In this document: one piece after another, positions 6,466 through 46,815 of the stretch
Layout: each line of letters begins with the position of its first letter
Numbering within the stretch: position 1 is the stretch's first letter
Assembly: GCA_016934035.1 (NCBI GenBank)
Contig: JAFGTP010000011.1
Coordinates: 60,486 to 124,485, forward strand
Direction of reading: 5' to 3'
DNA: 64,000 nucleotides
Source of the DNA: Fidelibacterota bacterium
GTDB lineage: Bacteria; Fidelibacterota; UBA2242; JAFGTP01
Notes under the pieces: model-generated
Told to the model about the DNA's origin: nothing
Databases searched by the model: none
The model's input: the letters and a program-made list of their open reading frames with translations, nothing else
Program-made: the position numbers and the translations under genes

Positions 6466-7225
6466 AAAATCTTATTTGGAAGACACAGAGGTAAAAATTG
6501 CAGTAAATTCACCCGGATTTCAGTATGGTATGGGTTTTTTCACGTCGCTTAAATTTATCGATGGACAAGCCCAATTTTTAAATTACCATCTGGAGCGAAT
6601 ATATCATTCCTGTCGAGTTTTCAATATTCCCTTTAATCCCATTGATATAAACAAGATCATCGAAAACCTCATGAAAAAAAATAATTTGCTGGAATCCCGT
6701 ATAAAACTAATCATTTACGTCGATGAAGACTTAATGGGGCAATATCTGATTATACCTCAGAACCTGATAATAAATAAATATGAAAAGAATTTGGATTCAG
6801 TGGCAGTAGATCGGGGAGATTTAATCCTGAATCACCACAAATCGCTAAATTATTTTGATAATATTCGAATGAAAAATACAATCAGAGAAAATTTTGATGA
6901 CTTAATATTGTTCAGTAAAAAAGGACAGGTTCTGGAAGCAACGACTTCAAATATATTTTTCTTAGACAAGGATACGCTATATACACCTCCTTTAAATCTA
7001 CCGATATTAAACGGAATAATAAGAAGGGTAATTTTAGAATCGCAGGATATCCGGTGTGTGGAAAAGGAAATTTCCATGAATGAAATCATAGATTTTGCGG
7101 CTTGTTTTTTGACCAATTCAATAAAAGGAATTATACCTGTAAAATCAATTGTGTATAAGTCCAAAAGAATGATTTTTAATTGTGAAAATATTAATAAATT
7201 ACCGTCTAAATTATTAATGCTTTAG
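6443..7225 (+). CDS. pabC: Aminodeoxychorismate lyase / class IV aminotransferase
   Basis: Fold-type IV aminotransferase-like sequence of the right size (260 aa) placed after pabAB. It overlaps pabB by 23 nt. Confidence 0.6.
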   Translation: MEMIVFHKKSYLEDTEVKIAVNSPGFQYGMGFFTSLKFIDGQAQFLNYHLERIYHSCRVFNIPFNPIDINKIIENLMKKNNLLESRIKLIIYVDEDLMGQYLIIPQNLIINKYEKNLDSVAVDRGDLILNHHKSLNYFDNIRMKNTIRENFDDLILFSKKGQVLEATTSNIFFLDKDTLYTPPLNLPILNGIIRRVILESQDIRCVEKEISMNEIIDFAACFLTNSIKGIIPVKSIVYKSKRMIFNCENINKLPSKLLML

Positions 7226-19339: not shown

Positions 19340-22300
19340 TTGAAGTGGTACGTTATGAAAAAGTGGGGAAATTTAATTTTTATTGGTGTTGCTATTCTGA
19401 ATTTCGCTTTCAGTAAAGAACAACCATTACATCTCATACCCCTGGATTTTAATCGGGCGATCCATTGTATTTATCAAGATTCAAACTATTATCTCTGGTT
19501 TGGTACAGATGATGGACTCTATCGGTATAACGGAAAAGATTATGTCGCCTACAAAATTGATCCTTATCAAAAGAATAGTATATCCGATGATAATATCACT
19601 GCCCTTTATGAAAATGGAAGTCGGGACCTGTTGATTGGGACAAAATTTGGCGGAATCAATAAATTTAATAGCAGTACGGAAAATTTTTTATCTTTTCAAA
19701 ATGACCTCATGTCCAGGGTTTCCATTCATGCAATATGTAATTTTCAGAATGAAATATTATTTGGGATTGATTCTGGATTATTCAGGCTGAAAAGTGAGAA
19801 TAGTGAATTGTCATACCAGGCTGTCCTTACCGGTTACACAATTACTGACATTTTATCTGTAGATGATCATTGTTTGATGGTTGCAACGGAAAATAACGGT
19901 TTTTTTCATTATGATAATTTTGAAAAGGAGGGTAGTGAAAAGGACCATTTTCTCAGTAATGTGGGAGTCAATTTTTTATTAAAGGTAAATAAAAATATTA
20001 TATTGATATCAACCAGGCAGGGGCTGTATTATTACAATTTGTCCGCAAAATCTCTTAAATCCATCGAGCACAAGGGAATAGTAAATTTATCCAGTGTTGA
20101 TAAAAATGCCATTACAATGGACCACCTCGGCAATATCTGGATAGGATTGGGGTATGAATTGCATCTGATTAGCACTTCTGACGACTTTAATTCCATTGAT
20201 ATTCAGTCCTTTGAACTGGATGTAGATAACCAGTTTTCAAAGGGAATTAATGCCTTGTATTTTGATCATAGCGGTGTCCTGTGGATCAACCTGAAAGGGA
20301 AAGGTTTATATAAATATTTCCCGTTACAAAAATTTTTGCATTTCAATATTGAAGAAGGATTGATGAGCAATATGATCTTTTCCGTCATTGAAAACAATTC
20401 CCATTCAATCCTGCTGGGCACCCATCATGGTTTATTTGTTTATGACCTGGAAGACCACCTTGTCGAAAGGATACCTGGAACGGAAGAACTGAATTTTCAG
20501 GTCATCACCGCTTTGTATAAAGATAGTTATCAAAACCTCTGGTGTGGCACGAATAATGGCCTCTACAAGTTTGGATCTTCCGGCGATCTTGTCCATTATA
20601 AACATTCCTCAAAGGAACTGAGCAGTATCAGTTCTGATTTTGTCTCCTCCATTGTTGGTGATCCGCTCAATGTTGGCGACCTTTGGATCGGTACTTCCGA
20701 CGGACTCAACCGCTATCGAAAAGAATATGACAATTTCATTCATTATTTTCATGACCAAAAGGATGAACATTCTATTGCCGGAAATAATATTTCCCATTTG
20801 TATTTTTCCCAAAAAAAGGACCTCTGGATCGGAACAGAGAATGAGGGACTGTCTAGATTAAATTGGGCAGAAATGAACAAATTTGACCCAAAATTTGTCA
20901 ATTATGGCGATGATATTACTCAAAAAGAAAGTATCAGCGATACCAAGATCACCTATATTTCCGAAAGCAATGACAGAATATGGATTGGAACTGAGAACGG
21001 CGGTTTGAATTCAATCGATACCCTAAACAACTTCAATCATTATCTTGAAACAAAGGGGCTTTTGGATAACCATATTTTGTCGATTTTATCCACTCAGGAT
21101 GATTTCCTCTGGATTGCAACACGGGACGGAATATCCAAATTCGATACTCGAAACCGTGTGTTTAAAAATTATTATTTCAAAGATGGTATAAAGAAGGGTG
21201 AATTTATTAATAAATCAGCCTGCATCACAAAAAATGGTAAAATTATTTTAGGTTCCAAAGCCGGCTTTACTTTTTTTCATCCGTCTCAGATTGTCAGCAA
21301 TATCAATCCGGCAGTTCCGCAGGTTGCCGGTGTTTATCTTTTTAACCAAAAAATAAAAAATGAAGATTTTAAAGGCCAGGGTGAAATTATCAAATTAAAA
21401 TATAACCAAAATGTTATCTCTTTTGAAATTTGTGCGCTTCACTATGTTTCTCCTCTTGAAAATATTATCGACTATTATCTCGAAGGTGTTGATGAGAGTT
21501 GGGGCAGATGTCGGAATTTTGAATACCTGACATATTCAAATTTAAAACCCGGTCAATATACTTTTCACATAAAAGTGGCTAATAATGACAATATCTGGAA
21601 TGAAAATGAAAAGAGCCTGAAAATTACGATAACTGCTCCGTTCTGGAGGACTTTTTGGTTTCAGTTTATTGTAATCTCTCTAATTGCAGGCCTGGCCTTT
21701 CTGTTCATCAAGCAACGTTTGAATGAGATTGAAAAGAAAAAATTTCATCTGGAAAAACAAATTGGGGATAAAATCAAAATCAATGAAGAACTTAATAAAG
21801 CCCTGGCAGAAGTAGAACAGTTGAAAATTAAACTTGAAAATGAAAACACTTATCTGAAAAAAGAAATTGAGGTCAGCGGCAATTCAAATTATAAAGAAAT
21901 CGTGACCAATAGTAAAAAGATGAATCATATTCTCGCCCAGGTGGATATCGCATCCGGTGCAGACCCGACTATTTTGATATTAGGCGAGTCAGGAACAGGA
22001 AAAGATCTCCTCGCTCATGCCATTCACAAAAGCAGTAATCGAAGCAAAGAGCCTTTTATCAAAGTTGATTGTGCCGCATTGCCCCCCAACCTTATTGAAT
22101 CAGAACTTTTCGGCCACGAAAAAGGTGCATTTACTTCAGCAAATATGCGTAAAATCGGGCGTTTTGAATTAGCCAACGGCGGGACAATTTTTCTGGATGA
22201 GATTGGAGAACTTCCGATCAAGGTGCAACAGAAATTATTGCGGGTCCTTCAAAGCGGAGAATTTGAACGACTCGGAAATTCTGTGACACTGAGAACCAAT

Positions 22301-22825
22301 ACACGCATCATTGCCGCAACAAACCGCAATCTTGAAGATGAAGTGAAAAAGGGACAATTTAGAGAGGACCTCTATTACAGGCTCAATGTCTTTCCGATCA
22401 ATATTCCGCCTTTGCGGGAAAGGATGGAAGATGTGCCCCTGCTCGTTCAGCATTTTATTGATAAATATGCTGGGAAATTCAATAAAACCATTACCAAAAT
22501 TCCGCAGAAAACCATCACTGCGCTGATGTCCTATTCCTGGCCCGGCAATATTCGTGAATTGGAAAATATCGTACAGCGGGCTATCATTATTAGCCGAGAC
22601 GACATACTGGAACTGGGTGATTGGTTTAAATCCAATCAACCCAATCGTGAAAACGATGATGAAAATATATTTATTTCTCTGGAAGAGATCCAAAAGCGCC
22701 ATATTGAAAGAATATTGGAATTTACCAATGGAAAAGTCAGCGGGGAAAACGGGGCTGCGGAAATTTTAAAAATTAACCCGAAAACTCTATTTAGCAGGAT
22801 GAAAAAATTAAATATAAATAACTAA
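19340..22825 (+). CDS. Membrane-anchored one-component sigma-54-dependent transcriptional activator with a periplasmic beta-propeller (two-component-regulator-propeller repeats)/Y_Y_Y sensor, then TM helix, coiled coil, AAA+ sigma-54 interaction domain and Fis-type HTH
   Basis: N-terminal signal/anchor. Repeated …LWFGTDDGL/…LLIGT/…IWIGT propeller repeats. Y_Y_Y-like segment (NLKPGQYTFHIKVANND). TM helix FWFQFIVISLIAGLAFLF. The AAA+ domain has Walker A ILILGESGTGKD, ELFGHEKGAFTSA (GAFTGA-type) and R-finger motifs. C-terminal HTH. No HisKA/HATPase or receiver segment is recognisable. Confidence 0.75.
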   Translation: MKWYVMKKWGNLIFIGVAILNFAFSKEQPLHLIPLDFNRAIHCIYQDSNYYLWFGTDDGLYRYNGKDYVAYKIDPYQKNSISDDNITALYENGSRDLLIGTKFGGINKFNSSTENFLSFQNDLMSRVSIHAICNFQNEILFGIDSGLFRLKSENSELSYQAVLTGYTITDILSVDDHCLMVATENNGFFHYDNFEKEGSEKDHFLSNVGVNFLLKVNKNIILISTRQGLYYYNLSAKSLKSIEHKGIVNLSSVDKNAITMDHLGNIWIGLGYELHLISTSDDFNSIDIQSFELDVDNQFSKGINALYFDHSGVLWINLKGKGLYKYFPLQKFLHFNIEEGLMSNMIFSVIENNSHSILLGTHHGLFVYDLEDHLVERIPGTEELNFQVITALYKDSYQNLWCGTNNGLYKFGSSGDLVHYKHSSKELSSISSDFVSSIVGDPLNVGDLWIGTSDGLNRYRKEYDNFIHYFHDQKDEHSIAGNNISHLYFSQKKDLWIGTENEGLSRLNWAEMNKFDPKFVNYGDDITQKESISDTKITYISESNDRIWIGTENGGLNSIDTLNNFNHYLETKGLLDNHILSILSTQDDFLWIATRDGISKFDTRNRVFKNYYFKDGIKKGEFINKSACITKNGKIILGSKAGFTFFHPSQIVSNINPAVPQVAGVYLFNQKIKNEDFKGQGEIIKLKYNQNVISFEICALHYVSPLENIIDYYLEGVDESWGRCRNFEYLTYSNLKPGQYTFHIKVANNDNIWNENEKSLKITITAPFWRTFWFQFIVISLIAGLAFLFIKQRLNEIEKKKFHLEKQIGDKIKINEELNKALAEVEQLKIKLENENTYLKKEIEVSGNSNYKEIVTNSKKMNHILAQVDIASGADPTILILGESGTGKDLLAHAIHKSSNRSKEPFIKVDCAALPPNLIESELFGHEKGAFTSANMRKIGRFELANGGTIFLDEIGELPIKVQQKLLRVLQSGEFERLGNSVTLRTNTRIIAATNRNLEDEVKKGQFREDLYYRLNVFPINIPPLRERMEDVPLLVQHFIDKYAGKFNKTITKIPQKTITALMSYSWPGNIRELENIVQRAIIISRDDILELGDWFKSNQPNRENDDENIFISLEEIQKRHIERILEFTNGKVSGENGAAEILKINPKTLFSRMKKLNINN

Positions 22826-22842
22826 CTATTTAAAAATCAGGA

Positions 22843-23622
22843 TTGGGTATGGTATCTGCAAAAAAAATTATCCGCATAATGGATAAATACAAGCTGGAGA
22901 AATTGTTGCTGTCACCACAGCATCACAATATTGAAAATGGGTCCTATGACTGGTTACTGGGCCTTTTCCCTGATATGGATCCACTGAAGATGAAATTAAA
23001 AATTGATTCCATATTTAAAAGTCAGAAAGTCAATTCAAATTTTGATATGAAAAACCAGGAGTTCATCAATGCTTGTTGTCTTGAAAATAACAGGCTTAAA
23101 TTAATCTATACAATTGATATTGGTAATGATGATATTATAAGAAAATTACAATCAGAATTTGGAAAATCGCCATTTTCTGCCTTGAAAATAAATAATTTGT
23201 TTTCTTCTCTGGACCGGAATAATCAAAATCTTTTCAGGGTAATTAATTTCTGTCGCATCAATGAAATGCCGCTACTGCTCTATGCCTATAAAAAAGCTGA
23301 CTGTGAAATTATCCGCAATCTTGCGGCTGAAAACCAATCCAACACCTTTATGATAGCCAGCATGAGCGGATTGGAATTTTTTGAACTTTATCGGGATTTG
23401 CCCGTGAACCTATTCTGTGAAATAAATAATTTAAACCTTGTTTCTGATTACAGGTTACTAAAAGCCCTGAATATATTTGGTCCCGGTCATTTGGTCTTTA
23501 GTTTTGAGGCCATCAATGAAGATAATCTCAGACACTCTATCATCAGAATCTGCAATCTGGCTGTTCCGGAAACTGTAAAAAGAAGAATTCTGGCGTTGAA
23601 TATTGAGACCTTGTTGAATTAA
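22843..23622 (+). CDS. Hypothetical cytoplasmic protein
   Basis: ORF of 259 aa starting 17 nt after the activator gene. No recognisable motifs. Confidence 0.35.
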   Translation: MGMVSAKKIIRIMDKYKLEKLLLSPQHHNIENGSYDWLLGLFPDMDPLKMKLKIDSIFKSQKVNSNFDMKNQEFINACCLENNRLKLIYTIDIGNDDIIRKLQSEFGKSPFSALKINNLFSSLDRNNQNLFRVINFCRINEMPLLLYAYKKADCEIIRNLAAENQSNTFMIASMSGLEFFELYRDLPVNLFCEINNLNLVSDYRLLKALNIFGPGHLVFSFEAINEDNLRHSIIRICNLAVPETVKRRILALNIETLLN

Positions 23623-23625
23623 TAT

Positions 23626-23645
23626 TTCTGAAATATCAGAAATAT
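23626..23645. promoter_or_regulatory. Perfect inverted repeat ATTTCTGA-AATA-TCAGAAAT (candidate transcription-factor operator or upstream activating sequence)
   Basis: Read directly. The same unit (TTCTGAAAT) recurs at 24326-24344 and many times in 29146-29299. Confidence 0.35.
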
Positions 23646-23777
23646 CTATAATATCCTAAAACAGTAACAATAATTTCCTGTAAATACTTTAAGAAATTAG
23701 TAATTTTTTTTAATTCCTTAAAAAAAATACGTCGGAAAATGAATTTCTCTTAGGGTTTTGAGGTCAAACAGAAATTT

Positions 23778-23865
23778 TTGGCATTTGAATTGTTAATAAC
23801 TCTATCACGTACCATACTAATCCACAGAAAAAGGAAGATGCACCCCGCACTTCCTTTTTCTTTTT
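23778..23865 (+). promoter_or_regulatory. Module A: sigma-54-like -24/-12 element (TTGGCAT-N5-TTGTT), conserved box GTACCATACTAATCC, and terminator-like hairpin plus T-tract. Candidate small RNA gene or attenuator
   Basis: TTGGCAT lies at 23778-23784 and TTGTT at 23790-23794. The box is at 23809-23823. Hairpin GAAAAAGGAAG/CTTCCTTTTT spans 23827-23859 and is followed by CTTTTT. A near-identical module lies at 28845-28932. Confidence 0.3.
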
Positions 23866-24150
23866 ACTGTGAATAAAAATCCAAAAACTAACCTAAATAA
23901 AAAATATTTTGAAAAAAACTGGATTAAATCGGACTACCCTGAGGGCTTTGAGTGTTGATTGTTCGGCTTTTTGGATTGTAAATGAACATTTTCGTTGTGA
24001 TTAGTTGCGGATAGCGAAAAGGCCCTAATACCAGGAATATTCAATAGAAATGCATCAGTAGATAAAATAATTTCAGACTACGTAACCGAATTTTCTTCAT
24101 TTTGTATTACCATAACTTTTAAGCCCTCGATTATCTTTATACTCAAATCC

Positions 24151-24187
24151 GGGCTTTAACCCGATAACGGTTTATGGGTTAAAGCCC
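24151..24187. other. Perfect 12-bp stem hairpin GGGCTTTAACCC-(13 nt)-GGGTTAAAGCCC in the long non-coding leader
   Basis: Read directly. There is no adjacent T-run, so it is not a classic terminator. The upstream TTTTAAGCCC at 24118-24127 could pair alternatively with the 5' arm. Confidence 0.4.
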
Positions 24188-24468
24188 ATTAAAAATGAAA
24201 TTCCATGTTACGAGTTATTCCTCGTGGCAATTCATACACACTTTTTCCAATATGTAATCCGGGATAATACATAGTTAAATAAAGCACCTTGTTCCAATCT
24301 TTTTTTGAAAAGGCAAACGATTAAATCCGAAATTTCAGAAAAAACCTAAATATCAGATAGTTCACTGCCTTATTTAATTGTTTTAATTTGATTGAATATA
24401 TTAGTAATTAACTGATTAATAGTAAATTATCATTTTATTTTGGGACCTTGTTTTAGAATATTGATCTT

Positions 24469-24523
24469 TTGGTACTCAAATTGGATGAGTAGAAATCGGA
24501 TGATAAGGGATTAATGTAAGGGG
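24469..24523 (+). promoter_or_regulatory. Proximal promoter/leader of SusC-like gene A: TTGGTAC-N5-TTGGA followed by conserved leader box GGATTAATGTAAGGGG
   Basis: The same architecture lies upstream of the second SusC-like gene (29382-29426). A strong RBS AAAGGAGGAAGGT sits before the ATG at 24584. Confidence 0.3.
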
Positions 24524-24583
24524 ACCCACCAATCACACCGTTTTACATTAATCACAAGTAAATAAAACATAAAGGAGGAAGGT

Positions 24584-27484
24584 ATGGCGAAATACTTGAT
24601 TTCGTTATTTCTTGTCCTGGTTCTATTCTGTCCATTAATTGCCCAGGATAGAATTTCAGGAACAGTGATCGATGATGTCACAGATGAACCGCTTGTGGCA
24701 GCAAATGTATTGATAAAGGGAACATCTGTGGGCACAGCCACGGATGAAGAAGGTCGGTTCTTTTTAAATTACAGCAACAATGAGGGGTTTACGTTGCAGG
24801 TATTCTATATGGGATACAAAATGAAAGAAGTTGTCTTTGAGCCGGGATCTGGTCTGGCTAACATTTTAGTTAGAATGCAGGAAGATGTGTTTAAAGGACA
24901 GGAAGTTGTGGTCACAGGCATTGCTTCTCAAATATCACGGGAGATAGCACCAGTCTCTGTAGGTTCGGTTGATGCAACAAAACTGACGGATTTAAACGCC
25001 TACTCGGATATTGCCCAATTGCTCAACGGGAAAATTTCCGGTACTAAAATCACATCTTCCAGTGGAAATGTGGGCGGGGGATATCGCTTTGATATTCGTT
25101 CCGGTGGCGGTCTCAACGGAGATGGTCAGCCCGTTATCTATGTAGACGGCATTCGTATTGACAATTCAGAGATTGAAACCCGTTACAGCAAAGGGGGACA
25201 GGAAATCAGCATGATGGCTTCTCTTAATCCTTCAGAAATTGCAAATATTGAAATTCTGAAAGGTCCGGCTGCTGCAGCGACCTATGGAACGGACGGTTCT
25301 AATGGAGTTGTCCTCATTACAACCAAAAAGGGACAACTGGTCCAGGGCGGAAAAGGATATTCTATCAACTATAATTATAAATTTGGTACCAATTCCCAAT
25401 CCTATCAATACACCAAAGATGATGTTGTTTCCTACAAGGCCGCCAATTCTGTTTTCAAAGATGGTGATTTTGTGGGTCATGACCTCAGTATTTCCGGTGG
25501 TAATAAAGCAACAAAATACTTTTTTACCATGGGTATCCAGGATGAAGAAGGGATTATGGTTAACAATTTTCATAATCGTAAAAATATGCGTCTGAATGTT
25601 GACGCTGTGGCCAGTGAACAATTAAACCTGTCCGCAACCATTGCCATGAACCAGTCAGAACTGGCCCGTCCGGAAAATGATGATAATATTTATGGATGGG
25701 GTGGAAATACACTTTTAAGGCCCACACCCTGGGGTTGGCTGGACAGCATTGAAATTGCGGCGGCTGAAGAAAATATTGACATTAAAAAAATGTCCGGTAG
25801 TTTCAAGGCAACTTACAGGCCCTTCAAAAATTTTTCAATCAATGGATCCATTGGAGCGGAACATTCAAATATGAACCATTATTCCTATTACCCGCCATGG
25901 GGAGATTATCTCTATACCAATGGTTCTAAACAACTGACAGACCGATTCAATACACAGTTTACCTACACTTGGTATGCCGGATATAAATACAATATTCTGG
26001 AAGGCTTTACCGGAAACACCAAAGTTGGCGGCCAGTTATTCGATCAGGAACTGAGAAGAAATTATTTGGCCATTGATTCATTGTCATCAGATAAACTGAA
26101 AGATATTGGTTCTGCAAACGGTGAAGATTTTCTGGACGATTATGGTGAAAACTATGCGACCTTTCGAACTGCAGGGTTATTTTTGGATAATGCATTTAAT
26201 TTTCAGGATAAATTGTTTATAGGGGCCAGTATCCGGCAGGATTTTGCCAGTTCTTTATCGCCCAAAGCACCGAATATCATTTACCCCCAGGCTAATGTTG
26301 CAATCAGACTGGACCGGTTTGGATTGACACCCGGCCTGATTGATATGGCAAAAATCAGATTAGCCTACGGTGAAACAGGGCAGTTGCCGGGATCAACCCA
26401 GTCAACTCCATTGATATGGGCAGCTGAACAGTCGGGATATGGTGGTGGGCTAACGGTATCGGAAATTGGAAACAACAAACTGGAACCGGAAAGAATCAAG
26501 GAATTGGAAATCGGACTGGATTTGGGGCTTTTCAACCGCTACAAAATCGAAGCTTCTTATGCCAAAATGAACGCTGAAAATTCAATCGTGGGTAGAAATC
26601 TGGCGCCTTCAACCGGACTGGTGGTCACAGCTTTTCCTGATAATATCGGAAAAATTGAAGGACACTCCTTTGAGCTTGGCCTGGATGCAGTACTGGTCAA
26701 TGAAAAAAATGTTCGTCTTGAGATCAACCAGAGAAATTCATGGCAGAAAGATGAGATTACGATAATGCCGGAACCATCCTATACCAATGACATCCAGGTT
26801 CTGATGGAAGGTAAATCCAGATGGACGTTCTTTGATGAGAAAGTAGATTCCATCATGTATGATGAAAATGGAAAGTTTCTGGACTACCGTATATCCACAG
26901 ATAAGAAAGACCTGGGAGATGCCATACCCGATTATTTTGGTTCTTTGTCGATGAACCTTACCTTGTTCCGACATGTGAATATCTATGGATTATTGGATTG
27001 GCAGACTGGTGTCAAAGTCTATAATTTTACCAAGGTCTATCAAACTTTTTTTGGCAACAATGTGGCCTATAATGAAGCCACTGCCCTGGTGGATTCTCTT
27101 AATGCCATTGATGGGTATGATTATCATTCCGGAAAATACAAAAAAGCGGTTAAAGATTATGTGAAATACGATGCGGTTTTTTATGGTTCAAGGGCCGCTT
27201 TTATTGAAAATGGCGATTACCTGAAAATCAGAGAATTGAGCATCAGTTATGACGCCTCCCATTTACTGAAAAAATATCTGCCCAATGCAGGGATTGAAAG
27301 ACTGGCTTTTTCTTTTACAGCAAATAATCTCATTACATGGACGAAATATTCCGGTGCTGATCCCGAGGTCAATTCCACCGGCTCAACTGTAGATGGCGGT
27401 GAGACCTATGTTACCAGAAATGAAGATTTTTTGACAATGCAGCATCCTAAGAGGATTGCATTTTCAATACAATTGGGTTTATAG
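24584..27484 (+). CDS. SusC/RagA-like TonB-dependent outer-membrane receptor
   Basis: Signal peptide. Carboxypeptidase-regulatory-like N-domain (ISGTVIDDVTDEPLVAANVLIKGTSVGTATDEEGRF). Plug region and a long beta-barrel ending in an aromatic-rich C-terminus. A SusD-like gene follows. Confidence 0.85.
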   Translation: MAKYLISLFLVLVLFCPLIAQDRISGTVIDDVTDEPLVAANVLIKGTSVGTATDEEGRFFLNYSNNEGFTLQVFYMGYKMKEVVFEPGSGLANILVRMQEDVFKGQEVVVTGIASQISREIAPVSVGSVDATKLTDLNAYSDIAQLLNGKISGTKITSSSGNVGGGYRFDIRSGGGLNGDGQPVIYVDGIRIDNSEIETRYSKGGQEISMMASLNPSEIANIEILKGPAAAATYGTDGSNGVVLITTKKGQLVQGGKGYSINYNYKFGTNSQSYQYTKDDVVSYKAANSVFKDGDFVGHDLSISGGNKATKYFFTMGIQDEEGIMVNNFHNRKNMRLNVDAVASEQLNLSATIAMNQSELARPENDDNIYGWGGNTLLRPTPWGWLDSIEIAAAEENIDIKKMSGSFKATYRPFKNFSINGSIGAEHSNMNHYSYYPPWGDYLYTNGSKQLTDRFNTQFTYTWYAGYKYNILEGFTGNTKVGGQLFDQELRRNYLAIDSLSSDKLKDIGSANGEDFLDDYGENYATFRTAGLFLDNAFNFQDKLFIGASIRQDFASSLSPKAPNIIYPQANVAIRLDRFGLTPGLIDMAKIRLAYGETGQLPGSTQSTPLIWAAEQSGYGGGLTVSEIGNNKLEPERIKELEIGLDLGLFNRYKIEASYAKMNAENSIVGRNLAPSTGLVVTAFPDNIGKIEGHSFELGLDAVLVNEKNVRLEINQRNSWQKDEITIMPEPSYTNDIQVLMEGKSRWTFFDEKVDSIMYDENGKFLDYRISTDKKDLGDAIPDYFGSLSMNLTLFRHVNIYGLLDWQTGVKVYNFTKVYQTFFGNNVAYNEATALVDSLNAIDGYDYHSGKYKKAVKDYVKYDAVFYGSRAAFIENGDYLKIRELSISYDASHLLKKYLPNAGIERLAFSFTANNLITWTKYSGADPEVNSTGSTVDGGETYVTRNEDFLTMQHPKRIAFSIQLGL

Positions 27485-27493
27485 GAGGTTTAT

Positions 27494-28741
27494 ATGAAAA
27501 ATATTAAAATAATTTTATTGCCGGTTTTACTCTTCTCAATAGTCATGGTGTCCTGTGAAGATTGGGTCCAGGATTTACCTCCCCGCGAGGATATTATTGA
27601 AGATGATGTTCTGGTAGATGAAGCCGATATCGATTTACTGGTTCTGGGTATCAAGACCAATTTTTCTTCAACTATTGAGCGGTCCTCGCTCTATTCGGAA
27701 ATATTGGGAGATGCTGTAATTAATGGTCGCTATGTTTGTCAGGATGCCACTTATGATGTCTGGCGCGAACTTGAAGAAGGTGATATTCAATTAAACAATG
27801 CGGCGGTTGACGGGCTTTCCACAAATATTGGAGAAATGTGGCACTGTGCCACCAATCTCGTCGATCGTATCACCAATCGAATGGGAGAAATCAGTGAAGA
27901 AAAGAAAAATTATGGGCTTTTCAACGGCCATCTGTTTGAAGGCATTGCTTATGAGATTTATGCCAATTATTATGGTCTGAATGAAGAAGAAGGCGGTGGA
28001 TGTATCAACTCCGGGCCTTTTACCAATTCAGGGCAGCTCTTTGATATGGCCCTGAATAAATATGAAGAGGCCCTCAATTTTACCAGTGATCCCTGGGAAA
28101 TCCGGGTGGTGAATTCACTGATGGCCAGGTGTTATTTATATAAAGGTGATTATTCCGGTTCCAGGATATGTGGAGCACTGGGTTTGACAGAAGGTGACCA
28201 GCCCTTTGAGGCGCTTTATGTTCAGTCCTCGGATAATTATTGGTGGCAGCAAGCCAGCATTGGACTTCGTGTCCAGGTCATTGTGGATAACAGGTTTGCT
28301 CAGTATATCGATGAGGATCCCAACGAAGCCAACCGCATTCCGCTTTATGAATTGCCTGACGAATTAAATGTGTCAGAAGATACTGCGGCGGTTTATTGGA
28401 CCCAGGGTAAGTATATTGAGGCAGATGCGCCTATCGCTTTTATCACCTGGCAGGAGACCTATCTGATCCTGGCTGAACTGGCTGCAATAAGAGGACAATC
28501 GGGCAATGCCCTTGATGCTGTCAATGCAGTTCGTGGCAGTCATGGAATTGATCCGGTGTCCGAAGTCAATCGTGATTTGATCATCACAGAGCGGGATAAA
28601 GAATTATTTACCACAGGTGCAAGGCTGATCGATCAGCGTCGTTTTGATCTATGGCATTTGCCCTCCGGTACATGGAAGTATCTCCCAATCACGGAAAGTG
28701 AACGAAATGCCAATGATAATTTGCCCAATGTCGGTGAATAA
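27494..28741 (+). CDS. SusD/RagB-like lipoprotein
   Basis: Lipobox VMVSC. Sits immediately after the SusC-like gene. C-terminus …RRFDLWHLPSGTWKYLPITESERNANDNLPNVGE matches the SusD-family C-terminal LPIP-x-SE-x-NPNL-type tail. Confidence 0.7.
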   Translation: MKNIKIILLPVLLFSIVMVSCEDWVQDLPPREDIIEDDVLVDEADIDLLVLGIKTNFSSTIERSSLYSEILGDAVINGRYVCQDATYDVWRELEEGDIQLNNAAVDGLSTNIGEMWHCATNLVDRITNRMGEISEEKKNYGLFNGHLFEGIAYEIYANYYGLNEEEGGGCINSGPFTNSGQLFDMALNKYEEALNFTSDPWEIRVVNSLMARCYLYKGDYSGSRICGALGLTEGDQPFEALYVQSSDNYWWQQASIGLRVQVIVDNRFAQYIDEDPNEANRIPLYELPDELNVSEDTAAVYWTQGKYIEADAPIAFITWQETYLILAELAAIRGQSGNALDAVNAVRGSHGIDPVSEVNRDLIITERDKELFTTGARLIDQRRFDLWHLPSGTWKYLPITESERNANDNLPNVGE

Positions 28742-28758
28742 CTAATGAAATTAACCAT

Positions 28759-28800
28759 AAAGTCCTCTTTGAATTGCAAAGGGGACTTTTACTTTTCTTA
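28759..28800 (+). terminator. Rho-independent terminator after the SusD-like gene
   Basis: AAAGTCCTCTTTG-aatt-CAAAGGGGACTTT (one mismatch) followed by TTACTTTTCTT. Confidence 0.5.
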
Positions 28801-28844
28801 ACGATATCACAATGCAGAACAGAAAAAACATCCGAATCATACTA

Positions 28845-28932
28845 TTGGCATTCATATTGTTATGCTAAAAGATGTACCATACTAATCCTAGGAAAAGGAA
28901 AGTCTCTCTCAAATAAACTTTCCTTTTTCTTT
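28845..28932 (+). promoter_or_regulatory. Module B: second copy of the sigma-54-like element (TTGGCAT-N5-TTGTT), GTACCATACTAATCC box, and hairpin plus T-tract
   Basis: TTGGCAT lies at 28845-28851 and TTGTT at 28857-28861. The box is at 28874-28888. Hairpin AAAAGGAAAGT/ACTTTCCTTTT is followed by the same CTTTTTCTTTTT tail as module A. The stems differ by compensatory changes. Confidence 0.3.
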
Positions 28933-29145
28933 TTCCAGATAAAATTCCCGATATCAAATCAGTGCTATCCCCCGACAGAGTAAAAATGGCGACAGGAAAG
29001 GCTTTTTTTCAAACTGTTAAATCTGTCTTCAGAGTCTTATAAAAAAATGGTGTATGGAATGATGTTCGAATTTTTATTTAAAAATCTGATATTTACATTA
29101 ATTATTTAATGTATTTGTTGAATTTTTTTTAATAAAAATAGTTTA

Positions 29146-29299
29146 ATATCAGAAAAGTATGATTTAGTTGAGGGTTTGATCGGTTTTTTTGAAGTATTTA
29201 AGAAATTCTGAAAAAAAATTCGGAAATTTCGGAAATTTCGGAAAGTTCTGAAATATCCTATATTTAATCCTTTTTGCATTATTCTGAAATATCAGAAAA
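29146..29299. promoter_or_regulatory. Array of 9-bp TTC(T/G)GAAA(T/G) units: five direct repeats (29206-29254), an inverted repeat ATTCTGAAAT-ATCAGAAAA (29281-29299) and isolated half-sites (29146-29157). Candidate activator binding region
   Basis: Read directly: TTCTGAAAA, TTCGGAAAT x2, TTCGGAAAG, TTCTGAAAT, and a palindrome built from the same unit. It lies about 85 to 240 bp upstream of the proximal sigma-54-like element at 29382. Confidence 0.4.
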
Positions 29300-29381
29300 C
29301 TAATTTTTAACATAAGTATTATCAATATTTTATCCAAATAAATATCGGTGTGATTGAAAAAAAATAATTCAAAATGGGCTC

Positions 29382-29426
29382 TTGGTACATCTGTTGAGAA
29401 ATACCTATCAGGATTAGTGTAAGGGG
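29382..29426 (+). promoter_or_regulatory. Proximal promoter/leader of SusC-like gene B: TTGGTAC-N5-TTGAG followed by GGATTAGTGTAAGGGG box
   Basis: Same architecture as 24469-24523. RBS AAAAGGAGGAAAGT sits before the ATG at 29493. Confidence 0.3.
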
Positions 29427-29492
29427 GTGTCAAAAAACACATCTAAAACACAATCATACAAAGTGCTAACGAGGTTAAAAAAGGAGGAAAGT

Positions 29493-32400
29493 ATGACAAG
29501 AAATGTCATTTTATGGTTATTGACCATCCTGTTACCATTTGTTCTATTCGCTGGAACAACTGGTAAAATTTCAGGAATAGTAACCGACAAGGAAACCGGT
29601 GAACCCTTACCCGGTGTTAATATAGTGGTTACCGGTGGCGGTCTGAATACCGGAGCGGCAACTAACATCACCGGTTATTATTCCATTATTAATGTTCCTG
29701 TAGGTGATTATGAAATGAAAGTATCCTACATGGGAAAAAAGACCATTGTAATTAAAAACCTACATGTATCCCTGGATTTGACGACAGAAATCAATCTTGA
29801 GATGGAAAACAGTACATTGGATATGGAAGAAGTTCTGGTTACTGCCGAACGCAAAATTATCAGAAAAGATGAAACCAATACCAATGTTATCAAAACTGCT
29901 GAAGATATTGAAAATCTTCCCGTAAGAGGTATGCAGGAAATTGCAGCCGCCACAGCAGGTGTTGTGAAAACAGCGAATTCCAACAACATGAATGTTCGTG
30001 GCGGACGTGCAGCAGAAACTGCAGTGTATATAGACGGCGTACTGGTTAATGATCCCTATAACAGTGCCGTCAGACTGTATTTGCCAAACGAAGCAATTGA
30101 AGAAATGAGTGTCCAGACCGGTGGTTTCAATGCCGAATACGGTGATGCCATGTCGGGTATTGTTGCTTTGACCACCAATGTTGGGACAAAAGAATACAAG
30201 GCCTCTATATCTTTTGATACGGACCAGTTTCTGAGTGCTGAGGAAAAATTTCTGGGGACCTATTCCTATGGCCATAATGAGTATGTTGCCACCTTGAGTG
30301 GTCCTATTATTCCTGGAAAAAATCATACATTCTTTTTCAGTGGAACCCGTCAATACCAGGCTGACTGGACGCCTTCTTATGGCTGGTCAGAAAATCCCTA
30401 TCGTCTGGAGGAAATGGATTATCATCAGACTTTTATGTATGACAATGAATTTGACAGCATTCGTATTGCTTATAATGATGAAATGGAAAAAATGGATACA
30501 ACCCTGATAACCTATACCGAAAGAGATACACTTGATCTCGGTAACCATCAATACAAGTTTAATGCAAGAATACCTGGCAATTTCAACAGTGTCTGGTCAT
30601 GGAACGGAAAATTTAAATTACAATTGACCGAAGGGATTTCACTGAAAACCGGTTTTGCCAGAACTGACAGGGAATTTGCTGCAGATCCTTATTATGATGA
30701 TGCGATGCACCGGCAATATTTCTTCAATCAGGACCATGGTCCTGTTCAGTCCAATCAGACAACATCTCTCAATACCACGCTGACTCATACTGTTTCCAAT
30801 AATACTTTTTATGATTTAAGATTCAAATATTTTGATACAGAGCGGAAATGGTACGATAAGGAATTTGGTGATGATCTGGAAAAATATGGTAGTGTTGAAG
30901 ACCAGCCCTTTCCGGATCAAAATATATTCTACGTCGGTAGTGAAGAACTCCGGTCGCTTTATGAAGAGCGGTATGACCGTGGAACTTCAACATTTAAAGG
31001 TACTAGGTTCAACGGTTCTCTGGAACCGGACTTTTTTGCGCCCGGTGTTCCTTATGACGATTATTTTAAAAACAGAACAACCTATTGGGGAATCGATTTT
31101 GATCTGACCCACCAATTGGGAAAACATCATACCTTTAAAACCGGGTTTGAATATAAATATCACACCATGCGTGAATTTCGTATGGTAAGTCCCTACAATT
31201 ACGTCGGAGATTATGATACTGATATTGAAAGATATCAGGGTGCGGACCTGCGATTCTACGGTTATGATGTTGAGGGTAAAGAAGTGGATGACGGGCCAAA
31301 TTTTCTGGATGATGTCGAAAGAGATGAATCCGGACAGCCCACATCTGGTTATGACAAACAGGAACCCTATCATCCGATTATTATGAGTGGTTATTTGCAG
31401 GATAAAATAGAGTATGAAAATATTATCATCAATATGGGACTGAGATATGACCGGATTGATCCCAATGCCTGGATGTTCAAACAAATTGATAAACAGGTTG
31501 ATGCAGATGGCAATTACATCAATGGCACCGGTATGTTTGGTGGCAATGAACAATTTGATGCTGTAGATACAAAACCCTCAGAAGTATATGACTATCTCAG
31601 TCCTCGTCTGGGCGTGTCTTTTCCGATTACCGAAAGTACTGTTTTCCATACACAATATGGTATTTTCTATCAGGCACCTCAGCTCATGGACCTTTATCTG
31701 AGTCCTTTTTATCTGGATACCTATGTATCAGGTGGTGGTTATTTTACTGTGATTGACAATCCAAATTTACGGCCACCCAAAACCACTTCCTATGAATTGG
31801 GTTTCAAACAAATGCTTGGCAATCGCGCTTCGCTGCAGCTGACGACCTTTTTCAAGGAAACTGAAGACCTGGTACTGATATTCCCACATTTGACCGATGC
31901 TACGGAAATCGCTTTTACCGATAATGGTGATTTTGGCACCATCAAAGGTTTTGATGTGATTTTTACTATGAGAAGATTCAATAATCTTTCACTGAATATG
32001 AATTATGAGTTCCAGGTAGCCAGAGGGACCGGATCCAGTACCAATTCCAATTTTGATATCGCCTGGCAGGATGGTTCCCGGGACGGAAACTTTCCAAAGT
32101 TTGCAATGCCCCTGGATTTTGAGCAGCGACATCGCGGCAGTATCATAATGGATTACCGATACGGGCAGGATGATGCACCAATCGGTTTTCTGAATAATGC
32201 CGGTATCAATATGATGTTTACTTTTAATTCAGGTAATCCCTATACTTTGGCGGTTGTTGCCAACACCAATCCTTTTGGCGGCCGGAATGACAATGATGGT
32301 ATTTCAGAAAAACCCTTTTCAGCAGTCGGTGCGGAGCGGACTCCCTGGATGTATCAGACAGACCTGAAAGTAGATAAAAGAATGACTTTCGGAAAAATAA

Positions 32401-32633
32401 AACTGACGGCCTACTGTACAATATTGAATGTTTTTAATAAAGAAAATGTTAAAAATGTTTACATCACCACTGGATCGCCCAATGATACGGGTTACCTGGG
32501 TACCAATCCCGGTAAAGTATACTGGAATAGTTTAACTGAAGATCAGCAAAAACAATTCAAGATGAGAGAATGGGATTATAGCCATTATGCAGCACCAAGA
32601 CAGATTCGTCTTGGATTGCGGCTGGAACTATAA
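29493..32633 (+). CDS. SusC-like TonB-dependent outer-membrane receptor (no SusD partner)
   Basis: Signal peptide. Carboxypeptidase-regulatory-like N-domain (ISGIVTDKETGEPLPGVNIVV…GYYSI). Plug and a long barrel. Start taken at the ATG at 29493, which has a strong RBS; the ORF-track start at 29427 lacks one. Confidence 0.85.
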   Translation: MTRNVILWLLTILLPFVLFAGTTGKISGIVTDKETGEPLPGVNIVVTGGGLNTGAATNITGYYSIINVPVGDYEMKVSYMGKKTIVIKNLHVSLDLTTEINLEMENSTLDMEEVLVTAERKIIRKDETNTNVIKTAEDIENLPVRGMQEIAAATAGVVKTANSNNMNVRGGRAAETAVYIDGVLVNDPYNSAVRLYLPNEAIEEMSVQTGGFNAEYGDAMSGIVALTTNVGTKEYKASISFDTDQFLSAEEKFLGTYSYGHNEYVATLSGPIIPGKNHTFFFSGTRQYQADWTPSYGWSENPYRLEEMDYHQTFMYDNEFDSIRIAYNDEMEKMDTTLITYTERDTLDLGNHQYKFNARIPGNFNSVWSWNGKFKLQLTEGISLKTGFARTDREFAADPYYDDAMHRQYFFNQDHGPVQSNQTTSLNTTLTHTVSNNTFYDLRFKYFDTERKWYDKEFGDDLEKYGSVEDQPFPDQNIFYVGSEELRSLYEERYDRGTSTFKGTRFNGSLEPDFFAPGVPYDDYFKNRTTYWGIDFDLTHQLGKHHTFKTGFEYKYHTMREFRMVSPYNYVGDYDTDIERYQGADLRFYGYDVEGKEVDDGPNFLDDVERDESGQPTSGYDKQEPYHPIIMSGYLQDKIEYENIIINMGLRYDRIDPNAWMFKQIDKQVDADGNYINGTGMFGGNEQFDAVDTKPSEVYDYLSPRLGVSFPITESTVFHTQYGIFYQAPQLMDLYLSPFYLDTYVSGGGYFTVIDNPNLRPPKTTSYELGFKQMLGNRASLQLTTFFKETEDLVLIFPHLTDATEIAFTDNGDFGTIKGFDVIFTMRRFNNLSLNMNYEFQVARGTGSSTNSNFDIAWQDGSRDGNFPKFAMPLDFEQRHRGSIIMDYRYGQDDAPIGFLNNAGINMMFTFNSGNPYTLAVVANTNPFGGRNDNDGISEKPFSAVGAERTPWMYQTDLKVDKRMTFGKIKLTAYCTILNVFNKENVKNVYITTGSPNDTGYLGTNPGKVYWNSLTEDQQKQFKMREWDYSHYAAPRQIRLGLRLEL

Positions 32634-43930: not shown

Positions 43931-46729
43931 ATGAAAAGAAATTGGTTTTTGATTATTTTTTCTATTTTAATCGTTAACACTGTTTTATTGGCCACTCCGG
44001 GGACCATCAGCGGAAAAATTATTGATGATGATAATTTTTCCCTGGCCGGCGCCAATGTTTTTATACCCGTGCTGGGGTCAGGAACAGCAACCAATCATAA
44101 CGGAGAATTTGTGCTGGTCAATGTTCCGGAAGGTGAATATGAATTGAAAGTTACCTATATGGGCTATGAACAGCAAGCCCTGAAGGTAAAAGTTGAGGGC
44201 GGAAAATCTTCTGTTCTGACGATTGAAATGAAGCCGGGTGTGATAGTCGGAAATGAAGTTCTGGTTTTAGGTGATCGTCTGAAAGGACAGGCAAAAGCAC
44301 TTCAACAGCAAAAAACCAGTGGTAGAATCAGCAATGTGGTTTCTTCCGATCAAATTGGACGTTTTCCCGATGCCAATATCGGTGACGCTTTAAAACGCAT
44401 TCCATCGATCCATGTGAATTATGATCAGGGTGAAGCCCGATTTGTCAATATCCGCGGTACAGAGGCCCGACTGAATTCTGTGATGATCAATGGTGACCGG
44501 GTGCCTTCAGCTGAAGGGGAAATCCGGACAGTCCAGGTGGATTTAATTCCTTCCGACATGATTCAAACCATTGAAGTCAGCAAAGCCATTACGGCTGATA
44601 TGGATGCTGATGCAATCGGCGGTGCTATTAATCTGGTGACCCGCCAGGCCCCTAATGGCCGTCGAATTTCCGGCACCCTAGGCAGCGGATACAATTTTAT
44701 ATCTGCAAAGCCGCAAATGATCGGCTCCGGTGTATTGGGACAAAGATTTTTTAAAAATAAGCTGGGTGTTGTGCTGTCAGCTTCCTATTTTGATAACCCG
44801 ATGGGCTCCCATGATGCTGAAGGGGAATGGGACTTTGATGATGACGGAAACGTTATGCTGAAAGAATGGCAGATTCGGACTTATTTTGTTCAGAGAATCA
44901 GAAAAAGTATCTCCGGCAATTTTGATTTTGCCATCAATGACAATCATAAACTGATGCTGAATACGATGTACAATCATCGCAATGACTGGGAAAACAGATA
45001 CCGTGTGGTTTATGCTGACCTGGATGAAGGTGATGAAGCCAAAATTGAAAGGCAGGTGAAAGGCGGGATAGACAATGACGCCAATCATAGTGCCAGACTG
45101 GAAGACCAGCGTATCACCAGTCTCTCATTAAAAGGCGAACATCTCCTGGGAAATATCAAAATGGACTGGTCTGCCGGCTACGCAAAAGCATCTGAAGAAA
45201 GACCCAATGAAAGGTATATTCAATGGGTAGTAGAAGATGTGGAATTTACCCAGGATTTTTCAAAGATGCGGGAACCCAAGATCAATGCGGTTGATGCATC
45301 TGCTATCGCTTATGAAAATTTTGAATTGGATGAGTTAACTGAAGAATATCAGTATACGGACGAACAGGATCTGAATGCCAGATTGAATCTTGTAATTCCG
45401 GTCATCAAAGAAGGCCAATACAACAACAACCTCAAAGTCGGTTTTAAGTATAAACAAAAAGATAAAAAACGGGATAATGAATTCTATGAATACTCTCCAC
45501 TTGAAGAGGGTGACCTGGAATATATGACGAATACAAAATTGAAAGATATCACTGAAGAAAATTTTCTGGCTGGCGATTATGAAGCCGGTGAATTTACCGA
45601 TGCAGAATATCTTGGCGGATTAAAATTAAGTGATGCCTCAAGATTTGAAAAAGAAGATAAACCCGATGAATATGCAGCAGACAACTACGAAGCCACTGAA
45701 ACAGTGACTGCCGGCTATCTGTTGCTGGACCAGAATATCGGTGAAAAACTTTCACTCAATGCCGGATTGCGGGTTGAAATGACCAATATTGATTATACCG
45801 GTAATGAATGGATTGAAGAAGATGAAGAAGGGAATGAAAATGTCATCAAATCCACCAATGGCACAGATGATTACATGGACATTTTACCCAGTTTACATAT
45901 TCGCTATGAATTTGACAAAAATACCATTTTGAAGGCCGCCTGGACCAATACCATTGCCCGTCCGAATTATTACGACCTGGTTCCTTATCGGGCCATCGAG
46001 GGATATGATGAAGGTAATGTTTTTGAGGAAATGGCAGTAGGCAACCCGGCCCTGGAACCTACCCGTTCTATGAATTTCGATCTCATGGGTGAGAAATATT
46101 TCTCCACTATCGGTATTCTATCAGCAGGAGTGTTCTATAAAGCAATTACCGACTATATCTACGTCCAGGAACTGAACGACTTTGAAGAAGACGGCCGAAT
46201 CTATGAGGATTACTTCAAACCCATGAATGGGGGGGATGCAACATTGTATGGTTTTGAATTCGCCTATCAGCAACAATTGGGGTTTATCACGCCGGCTTTA
46301 AAAAATGTTGGTGTTTATTTTAACTATACCTATACCTATTCTGAAGCCGATAATCCGGCAATTGACGATATCCTTGAAGATGCTGATGAAGATAAAATCG
46401 GCCTTCCGGGAACTGCTCCCCATGCCTTAAATACGGCTTTAACCTATCAGACTAAGAAGTTCGGCACCGGCTTGTCCTTTAATTTCACCGATGCTTATCT
46501 TGATGGCGATGAAATGGACCTGACACCCGGCCTGGAAAGATATTATGACAAGGTCACTTACCTGGACTTCAATGCTTCCTACCTGATCAATGATCATTTC
46601 AGGATTTTCCTGGAAGCCAATAATCTTCTGAACCAACCATTAAGGTATTATGCCGGTGATCCGGAAAGGACTTACCAGGGAGAATATTACAATCGTCGTT
46701 TAAGTTTTGGATTAAAATTTGACATGTAA
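43931..46729 (+). CDS. TonB-dependent outer-membrane receptor
   Basis: Signal peptide. Carboxypeptidase-regulatory-like N-domain (ISGKIIDDDNFSLAGANVFIP…GEFVL), plug (GRFPDANIGDALKRIPS) and barrel ending …RRLSFGLKFDM. Confidence 0.85.
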   Translation: MKRNWFLIIFSILIVNTVLLATPGTISGKIIDDDNFSLAGANVFIPVLGSGTATNHNGEFVLVNVPEGEYELKVTYMGYEQQALKVKVEGGKSSVLTIEMKPGVIVGNEVLVLGDRLKGQAKALQQQKTSGRISNVVSSDQIGRFPDANIGDALKRIPSIHVNYDQGEARFVNIRGTEARLNSVMINGDRVPSAEGEIRTVQVDLIPSDMIQTIEVSKAITADMDADAIGGAINLVTRQAPNGRRISGTLGSGYNFISAKPQMIGSGVLGQRFFKNKLGVVLSASYFDNPMGSHDAEGEWDFDDDGNVMLKEWQIRTYFVQRIRKSISGNFDFAINDNHKLMLNTMYNHRNDWENRYRVVYADLDEGDEAKIERQVKGGIDNDANHSARLEDQRITSLSLKGEHLLGNIKMDWSAGYAKASEERPNERYIQWVVEDVEFTQDFSKMREPKINAVDASAIAYENFELDELTEEYQYTDEQDLNARLNLVIPVIKEGQYNNNLKVGFKYKQKDKKRDNEFYEYSPLEEGDLEYMTNTKLKDITEENFLAGDYEAGEFTDAEYLGGLKLSDASRFEKEDKPDEYAADNYEATETVTAGYLLLDQNIGEKLSLNAGLRVEMTNIDYTGNEWIEEDEEGNENVIKSTNGTDDYMDILPSLHIRYEFDKNTILKAAWTNTIARPNYYDLVPYRAIEGYDEGNVFEEMAVGNPALEPTRSMNFDLMGEKYFSTIGILSAGVFYKAITDYIYVQELNDFEEDGRIYEDYFKPMNGGDATLYGFEFAYQQQLGFITPALKNVGVYFNYTYTYSEADNPAIDDILEDADEDKIGLPGTAPHALNTALTYQTKKFGTGLSFNFTDAYLDGDEMDLTPGLERYYDKVTYLDFNASYLINDHFRIFLEANNLLNQPLRYYAGDPERTYQGEYYNRRLSFGLKFDM

Positions 46730-46815
46730 TCGCTGAAAACTTTATAAAAAAGAGACAGGGAAGTTTGCCTTTTGGGTGAATTTCCCTCTCTTTATATAAA
46801 ACCAATGAGGAAAAA

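Follow-up and report, generated by a model that had tools for sequence, protein, structure and literature searches.

Two intergenic regions in a 64-kb stretch of DNA from a Candidatus Marinimicrobia metagenome-assembled genome (MAG; locus tags JXQ65_) carry the same short module: a promoter-like element, a 15-nucleotide (nt) box, and a hairpin followed by a run of T. What does this module encode, and on what might it act? A reading made from the letters alone (the sequence-only reading) had located both modules and proposed that a sigma-54-type promoter drives a discrete small RNA (sRNA) of about 60 nt belonging to no known family. We followed this proposal through the whole stretch of 64,000 nt (the window; positions are counted from its first letter) and into other genomes, and it survived every test that could be run on sequence. 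The module is real and conserved, and most likely represents a new sRNA family of familiar design. Each copy is probably an independent unit for an sRNA of ~60 nt that would depend on sigma-54, act in trans, and block translation.

Both modules are present where they had been reported, each with its promoter-like element, box, and hairpin with tail (Table 1). TTGGCAT-N4-ATTG is followed 13-16 nt further on by the box GTACCATACTAATCC, and the box by the hairpin and U-run. Promoters for sigma-54 are marked by GG at -24, GC at -12, and a fixed spacing (TGGCAC-N5-TTGC); TGGCAT-N5-TTG matches the consensus spacing exactly, and every aligned copy reads TTGGCATT-N3-ATTG without change. Across 8-9 copies neither the -24 and -12 elements nor the distance between them differs, while the stretch from promoter to box is variable both in length and in sequence. 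A scan found no sigma-70-like promoter, and TTGGCA as a sigma-70 -35 element was rejected, since the aligned copies have no conserved -10 element at a workable spacing.

When the predicted RNAs are folded, their first 19-20 nt are unpaired and are followed by a stable hairpin and U-run, in all copies; the T-run after each hairpin lies within the common CTTTTTCTTTTT. The copy-1 RNA is predicted to start ~24 nt past the promoter GG and to end in the U-run. The two boxes are the only exact copies of GTACCATACTAATCC in the window, and allowing up to three mismatches adds a single match. The promoter-like pattern by itself is not enriched (3 matches against 1.8 expected in the 64 kb); the significance of the module resides in the ordered combination of its parts and in its recurrence in other genomes. 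Small coding open reading frames (ORFs) were considered and rejected: the minus-strand ORFs that begin in the reverse complement of the box (GGATTAGTATGGTAC) are 6-23 codons long and lack conservation, and on the plus strand an ATG occurs only in the loop of copy 1.

To look for relatives, we scanned 185,579 genomes (one per species; 596 gigabases) for exact matches to the 15-nt box, with ~1,100 matches expected by chance. At least 117 loci were found, nearly all of them chance; by their context only two pairs are real, L013/L018 and L084/L077. Both L013 and L084 have two full modules, and they come from two species-level MAGs of different studies. Two further retrievals were independent of the box. 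A metagenome scan for the promoter and hairpin pattern, with the box left free, returned L119 and L120, both of which carry the exact box; and contigs fetched by synteny, through orthologues of the activator gene that precedes copy 1 (69% and 54% identity), gave copies in L129-L134, again with the exact box. We thus have nine distinct module sequences from at least five lineages of a Marinimicrobia/Fidelibacterota clade, with the box identical in all, at protein identities between lineages of 54-69% for the activator, 62% for the 257-amino-acid (257-aa) protein encoded next to it, and 59-82% for the second receptor. The proposal had hung on there being conserved copies in other genomes, and these exist.

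The copies fall into two types. Type a, like copy 1, has a GC-rich loop and always comes after the activator gene, whether or not the 257-aa gene is also present; activator orthologues at 69%, 57% and 54% identity each have a type-a module downstream. Type b, like copy 2, has an AT-rich loop and always comes before an orthologue of the second receptor (82% identical in L013, 59% in L120). What follows type a is not always a SusC/D pair: in L119/L129 it is a gene for a PEGA/CsgG-like lipoprotein, an unknown gene, and a TssR-like gene (L129:14602-20119), and the type-b copy of this lineage, with its receptor gene, is on a separate contig (L120) of that sample. Activator homologues that are more distant, at 36-38% identity (L135, L136; from a group including Ignavibacteriaceae proteins), lack such an RNA element, so the family does not extend beyond a narrow clade.

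Within the alignment, the invariant parts are TTGGCATT-N3-ATTG, the 15-nt box, GAAAA..G.AA, and TTCCTTTTTCTTTT; the variable parts are the promoter-box spacer (13-16 nt) and the loop. All 107 pair cells of the stem are standard pairs across the nine copies (100% paired), and one pair shows a G-C/A-U exchange. As a separate observation, the stem GAAAAAGGAA/UUCCUUUUUC is invariant in sequence between lineages, beyond the needs of termination, and its purine arm consists of four A-R-N triplets. A search of the whole window against Rfam at the gathering threshold gave a transfer RNA as its sole match, and a permissive search of 23600-29500 returned only noise (E of 0.4 or more), in agreement with the claim that the element belongs to no known non-coding RNA family; FopS/GibS and Qrr are among the families that it fails to match.

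The same genome holds a third exact copy of the box, CGTACCATACTAATCC (L137:16672-16687), ~7.7 kb past the right end of the window. It lies 3 nt past the stop codon of a 108-aa signal-peptide ORF, and neither TGGCAT nor a sigma-54-like promoter is found there (L137:16666-16742). Its terminator is an unrelated hairpin with a T-run (-15.3 kcal/mol, z -7.5), and our covariance model R1 gives it 33 bits; the order of box, spacer and terminator is retained. With a different terminator and no promoter, this copy shows that the conserved unit is therefore the unpaired box plus a terminator. It argues for a function of the box at the RNA level and suggests that a form of the seed RNA borne in a 3' untranslated region (UTR) exists. 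It also bears on the objection that the element might be just the 3' end of the upstream messenger RNA (mRNA): both window copies have a conserved promoter-like element of their own, and copy 2 is set off from the upstream SusD gene by that gene's separate terminator, though the third copy does fit the description of a 3'UTR.

What might the box pair with? The clearest predicted target is a TonB-dependent receptor gene that adjoins clpP and the trigger-factor gene, on another contig of two species-level MAGs from different studies (L018, L077). Its start region, AAGGAGGATTAGTATGGTACG, can pair perfectly over 17 nt with the type-a RNA found in these MAGs (-29 kcal/mol); it runs from the Shine-Dalgarno sequence through the spacer and the ATG to GTACG, the five bases beyond. 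Given that a particular 15-mer is expected ~0.006 times in a genome of 3 Mb, this complementarity is not due to chance. The 68%-identical orthologue in L121 retains the site, with A replaced by G, a change that G-U pairing accommodates; in L124, a 56%-identical, non-syntenic receptor homologue, the site is partial or absent. Two features expected of a trans-acting sRNA are found here: an unpaired, conserved 5' seed directly followed by an intrinsic terminator, with the seed invariant in nine copies and in the third genomic context; and complementary sites that are conserved across species, at the receptor start of two MAGs (perfect over 15-17 nt) and, in wobble-compatible form, in L121.

In both MAGs a near-identical duplicate of the receptor start site lies 140 nt upstream, and L121 likewise keeps both sites. 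The duplicated start region GGAGGATTAGTATGGTGC is found ~140-270 nt upstream of the clpP-linked receptor gene (L018:1627-1790, minus strand; L121:1470-1765), and the duplicate in L018 opens a 14-codon ORF (MVRGLKHYKTFHSL). Near the same gene there is another GGATTAGGTAAAAC box, downstream of a TGGTAT-N4-TTG motif. The arrangement may provide a leader peptide, or a decoy to which the sRNA would bind.

We also scored the seed against the 36 gene-start windows in the window and compared the results with shuffled seeds. The three best of the 36 are all at this locus. The best covers the start codon of the 257-aa gene (22849), with duplexes of -19.9 kcal/mol for copy 1 and -20.2 kcal/mol for copy 2; 4% of shuffled seeds equal it, and the orthologous start site GGATTTGGTATGGTC is the second-best non-self match in L119/L129. 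The second best is the 5' box of the second receptor, which would form 10-11 base pairs with the sRNA box (-17.3 and -18.4 kcal/mol; 2.5% of shuffled seeds). The third is the activator start (-15.0 kcal/mol), which 13.5% of shuffled seeds equal and which is not significant; it is the best non-self match in L129 (-17.6 kcal/mol), and GTGGTAC is found upstream of the activator start in three of four lineages. In the 21 kb of L129 the two best non-self matches are thus the starts of the activator and 257-aa genes, and the receptor 5' box heads the list in L120. These sites within the locus are weaker evidence than the receptor site in L018.

Table 1. Features of the locus, in window coordinates; RNA ends, targets and binding sites are predictions.
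Feature	Coordinates	Strand	Remarks
Predicted weak target GTGGTACGTT	19345..19357	+	just before the activator ATG; would pair with ACGUACCAC/U at the type-a 5' end
Activator gene	19355..22825	+	1156 aa; Pfam: N-terminal Reg_prop/Y_Y_Y sensor, Sigma54_activat AAA+ (1.2e-69), HTH_8
Predicted target AGGATTGGGTATGGTAT	22839..22855	+	over the 257-aa gene start codon; best of 36
257-aa gene	22849..23622	+	rare family; between activator gene and copy 1
Palindrome TTCTGAAATATCAGAA (23626-23641)	23624..23658	.	candidate activator-binding site, ~150 nt upstream of copy-1 promoter
Copy-1 sigma-54-like promoter TGGCATTTGAATTGTT	23779-23794	+	GG 23780-81, TTG 23790-92
Predicted type-a small RNA, ~60 nt	23805..23865	+	covariance model R1 75.9 bits; ends predicted
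Copy-1 box GTACCATACTAATCC	23809-23823	+	predicted single-stranded seed, 15 nt
Copy-1 terminator hairpin	23826-23861 (with U-run to 23865)	+	folding -18.7 kcal/mol, z -7.9
Palindrome-related repeat ATCCGAAATTTCAGAA	24323..24357	.	~145 nt upstream of SusC1 promoter
SusC1 sigma-54-like promoter TGGTACTCAAATTGGA	24470..24485	+	separate from that of copy 1
SusC1 5'UTR box GGATTAATGTAAGGGG and hairpin partner TTTACATTAATC	24508..24553	+	
SusC-like (24584-27484) and SusD-like (27494-28741) gene pair	24584..28741	+	Pfam
SusD gene's own terminator	28759..28799	+	upstream of copy 2
Copy-2 sigma-54-like promoter TGGCATTCATATTGTT	28846-28861	+	GG 28847-48, TTG 28857-59
Predicted type-b small RNA, ~62 nt	28872..28934	+	covariance model R1 70 bits
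Copy-2 box GTACCATACTAATCC	28874-28888	+	15 nt
Copy-2 terminator hairpin	28890-28930 (U-run to 28934)	+	folding -14.9 kcal/mol, z -3.8
At least six TTCNGAAAT(A/T)TCNGAA repeats	29079..29297	.	candidate enhancer between copy 2 and second receptor promoter
Second receptor's sigma-54-like promoter TGGTACATCTGTTGAG	29383..29398	+	separate from that of copy 2; TGGTAC-N5-TTG conserved in L120, L013
Second receptor mRNA 5'-terminal box AGGATTAGTGTAAGGGGG and hairpin partner ACACAATC	29410..29456	+	
Second TonB-dependent receptor gene	29493..32633	+	Pfam; large unannotated genes come next

How would the modules be switched on? A sigma-54 activator gene had been said to sit immediately upstream. The gene is indeed present, and shared synteny ties it to type-a copies in four lineages; it is not the immediate neighbour of copy 1, as the 257-aa gene intervenes. 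Sites for sigma-54 activators usually lie roughly 80-200 bp upstream of the promoter. In three lineages (the window, L119/L131, and L133) the type-a promoters are preceded, at ~150-170 nt, by a palindrome, TTCTGAAATATCAG, which is a candidate site. The related pattern TTCNGAAAT(A/T)TCNGAA has 17 matches against 2 expected, grouped at 23624, 24323, and 29079-29297. These repeats are located ~100-170 nt upstream of sigma-54-like promoters and are kept in L119, L120, L131 and L133; clusters equivalent to that at 29079-29297 are found in L120 and L013. At 29217-29251, three copies of the repeat overlap with a phase of 9 nt.

The receptor mRNAs have a related feature of their own. Beyond their TGGTAC-N5-TTG promoters, the receptor mRNAs are predicted to open with a 5' hairpin formed by the conserved box GGATTA(A/G)TGTAAGGGG. 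The fold is alike in all four receptor 5'UTRs, the box-complementary GAUUAGUGU / GAUUAAUGUAA pairing with a downstream ACACAAUC / CAUUAAUC / UUACAUUAAUC, and these leader hairpins show compensating changes between lineages. The sRNA seed resembles their 3' arm (ACACAAUC / CAUUAAUC compared with AUACUAAUCC), so the sRNA might conceivably remodel the leaders by strand displacement.

We propose the following mechanism. The membrane-bound sensor-activator, with its periplasmic propeller/Y_Y_Y sensor, would bind the TTCNGAAAT(A/T)TCNGAA repeats and open sigma-54 promoters, those of the uptake genes as well as the TTGGCAT-N4-ATTG promoters of the sRNAs. Transcription of the sRNAs would begin 1-4 nt before the box and stop at the hairpin and U-run, and the RNA would keep its 5' end unpaired, with 15 invariant nt there, GUACCAUACUAAUCC, acting as the seed. 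The seed would pair with translation initiation regions of the type GGAUU(A/G)GUAUGGUAC, from the 3' part of the Shine-Dalgarno sequence across the spacer and the AUG to the codon after it, and binding of the ribosome would thereby be blocked. The clearest target would be the clpP-linked receptor gene of the related genomes. The starts of the activator and 257-aa genes would be weaker targets that, if real, close a negative feedback loop, and the 5'-terminal box of the co-activated receptor mRNA would be an additional site.

Other explanations were weighed against this one. The promoter could serve the downstream operon in cis, with the hairpin as a conditional terminator that is read through in the presence of substrate. 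Both window copies face SusC-like genes, and in L119/L129 the next gene begins only ~85 nt past the terminator, where read-through is conceivable. However, the SusC-like genes have conserved sigma-54-like promoters and repeat clusters of their own, 450-600 nt further on; the sequence-only reading had placed the modules at the head of long leaders to the SusC-like loci, a description that therefore does not hold. The downstream neighbour also varies by lineage (SusC/D, another module copy, or PEGA/CsgG-like genes, the last of these unrelated to SusC/D), and the third copy sits at the end of a gene and not at its beginning. The 19-20 unpaired nt before the hairpin are too short for an antiterminator, there is no alternative fold, and a leader would leave the complementarity of an invariant box to start regions on other contigs unexplained. 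The attenuator that had been offered as an alternative to the sRNA thus finds no support in the locus, and we consider it unlikely.

The box might instead act as DNA, as an operator just past a sigma-54 promoter, with an RNA that has no function. The motif GGATTAGT/ACTAATCC does also occur just past the SusC promoters, in the opposite orientation, and the stem is invariant and not covarying. A quite improbable explanation, it fails to account for a third copy that consists of box and terminator without a promoter, for complementarity that coincides precisely with the Shine-Dalgarno sequence, the spacer, the ATG and the 4-5 nt beyond it in genes on other contigs, or for the motif's place in the SusC leaders as an arm of an RNA hairpin with compensating changes. 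We give slightly less credence still to an RNA that titrates a protein, in which an RNA-binding protein, Hfq-like or other, would be captured by the U-tail or by the invariant, purine-rich AGAAAAAGGAAG (four A-R-N triplets). There is a precedent in CrcZ of Pseudomonas, a protein-titrating RNA that depends on sigma-54 and CbrB; the promoter type fits, as does a stem more invariant than a terminator needs. Yet the purine tract is buried in a stem of 12-15 base pairs, each RNA has just one, and the third copy lacks it and retains the box; the complementarity between box and start regions would again be unexplained. A non-functional duplication or chance resemblance is hardly credible: the sigma-54-like pattern taken singly shows no enrichment in the window, but the box is identical in at least five lineages at protein identities of 54-82%, two paralogues keep their synteny, and two retrievals independent of the box recovered it.

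Several observations weigh against an sRNA gene under sigma-54 control with targets in trans. That the RNA exists and is transcribed, that it depends on sigma-54, where it begins and ends, and the sign of its regulation are all predictions. The -12 element reads TTGA or TTGT, with the consensus C replaced by A or T; rpoN is absent among the genes of the window; and copy 2 has no repeat upstream, its nearest repeats lying 230-450 nt downstream. Ten of the twelve stem pairs never vary and covariation is weak; the stem is therefore conserved as sequence, which hints at a further constraint. On the side of the targets, the linkage of L013 with L018 and of L084 with L077 depends on metagenome binning, the site is partial or absent in the receptor orthologues L122, L125 and L128 (54-61% identity; L125 and L128 are the more distant), and the clpP-linked orthologue of the window's own genome was not retrieved. 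The targets in the window only modestly beat shuffled seeds (p about 0.04 and 0.025), and the best duplex in the whole window, at 6511-6535 (-21.3 kcal/mol), looks like a chance one, as it lies out of frame inside an aminotransferase-IV coding region (motif FQYGMG).

The neighbouring genes give some further context. The activator start at 19355 is the called start, from L001. The protein has no receiver or kinase domain by Pfam; it is a one-component protein, in which the type of sensor known from hybrid two-component systems is fused straight to a sigma-54 AAA+ domain and HTH_8. Its close orthologues are confined to this clade, and the same architecture recurs in homologues at 36-38% identity, some of which are named as Ignavibacteriaceae and Planctomycetota proteins. 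Only five homologues of the 257-aa protein occur among 5.8 billion clusters, and Pfam assigns it no domain. A structural model of low confidence (predicted local distance difference test, pLDDT, 60) weakly resembles the amidohydrolase fold (3cjp, template-modelling score, TM, 0.48), and the protein may be a TIM barrel of the amidohydrolase kind. The spacer that separates copy 1 from the SusC1 promoter contains, at 24150-24190, a strong 12-bp inverted repeat, GGGCTTTAACCC-N13-GGGTTAAAGCCC, without a T-run. A second block of uptake and regulatory genes (43931-55829) contains a TonB-dependent receptor gene (43931-46729) with phytase, esterase and phosphatase genes, and ends with genes for a Reg_prop/Y_Y_Y histidine kinase (50200-54426) and an NtrC-type sigma-54 response regulator (54420-55829). 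Uptake loci of this genome may commonly be under sigma-54 control.

Marinimicrobia (Fidelibacterota) are abundant and almost entirely uncultured. In the literature on their post-transcriptional regulation, sRNAs, or sigma-54 control of transporters, we found no paper. If our proposal is true, this would be the first candidate sRNA family of the phylum: a sensor-activator would drive, through sigma-54, both uptake genes and sRNAs that are predicted to silence other transporters and the activator itself. It would suggest that control of SusC/TonB-type transporters by sRNAs, known from experiments on gut Bacteroides (FopS) and on enterobacteria (OmrA/B), evolved independently in a further branch of the Fibrobacterota-Chlorobiota-Bacteroidota (FCB) group, with a different promoter logic, and the window's own genome would be expected to hold a clpP-linked receptor with the start region GGAGGATTRGTATGGTAC. 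With an invariant seed and a defined target site, the idea is directly testable in a heterologous host. The design is familiar; it is the phylum, the promoter type, the one-component sensor-activator and the clean pair of seed and target that make a good experimental entry. A bolder picture, to which we give little credence for now, would make the seed the hub of a small regulon in the Marinimicrobia clade, made from two stand-alone sigma-54 genes and one 3'UTR. It would combine feedback on a glycan-sensor activator of the Qrr/LuxO kind with a hierarchy of TonB transporters, remodelling of leaders, and a stem that marks a protein partner.

Three known systems resemble the proposed one. In enterobacteria, the adjacent paralogous sRNAs OmrA and OmrB share a 5' seed that represses cirA, fecA and fepA at their starts, and ompR; their promoters depend on sigma-70 and OmpR, and the RNAs depend on Hfq. 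The pair described here would likewise have a seed at the shared 5' end directed against the starts of TonB receptors and of its own regulator, though it is unrelated in sequence and belongs to another phylum. Qrr1-5 of Vibrio are, like the present pair, paralogous sRNAs with sigma-54 promoters and a single enhancer-binding protein encoded nearby (PMC3730234). They repress the mRNA of their own activator, luxO (PMC3730234), just as a feedback site is predicted here at the activator start codon. Qrr RNAs differ in having four stem-loops with the seed in stem-loops 1-2 and in their dependence on Hfq (PMC3730234); they come from another phylum and show no sequence similarity to the present RNAs. 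Their activator LuxO is a phosphorylated response regulator, whereas here it is a one-component membrane sensor.

The FopS family of Bacteroides thetaiotaomicron, with GibS, consists of multicopy sRNAs linked to glycan-uptake loci, as here, and has the same arrangement of a single-stranded 5' seed directly before a Rho-independent terminator (PMC11697453). FopS represses SusC-type transporters by pairing beside the start codon (PMC11697453), the mode of action that we predict for the TonB-dependent receptor. The two families are unrelated in sequence: their seeds differ, and the FopS promoters are of the canonical sigma-ABfr type (PMC11697453) while those here are sigma-54-like. There are 14 copies of FopS and two to three here, and no RbpB-like partner is known for the present RNAs. 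In addition, the Bacteroides host does not use Shine-Dalgarno-based initiation, whereas the present seed covers the Shine-Dalgarno sequence. By analogy, FopS is the closest system in function, and Qrr1-5 the closest in circuit.

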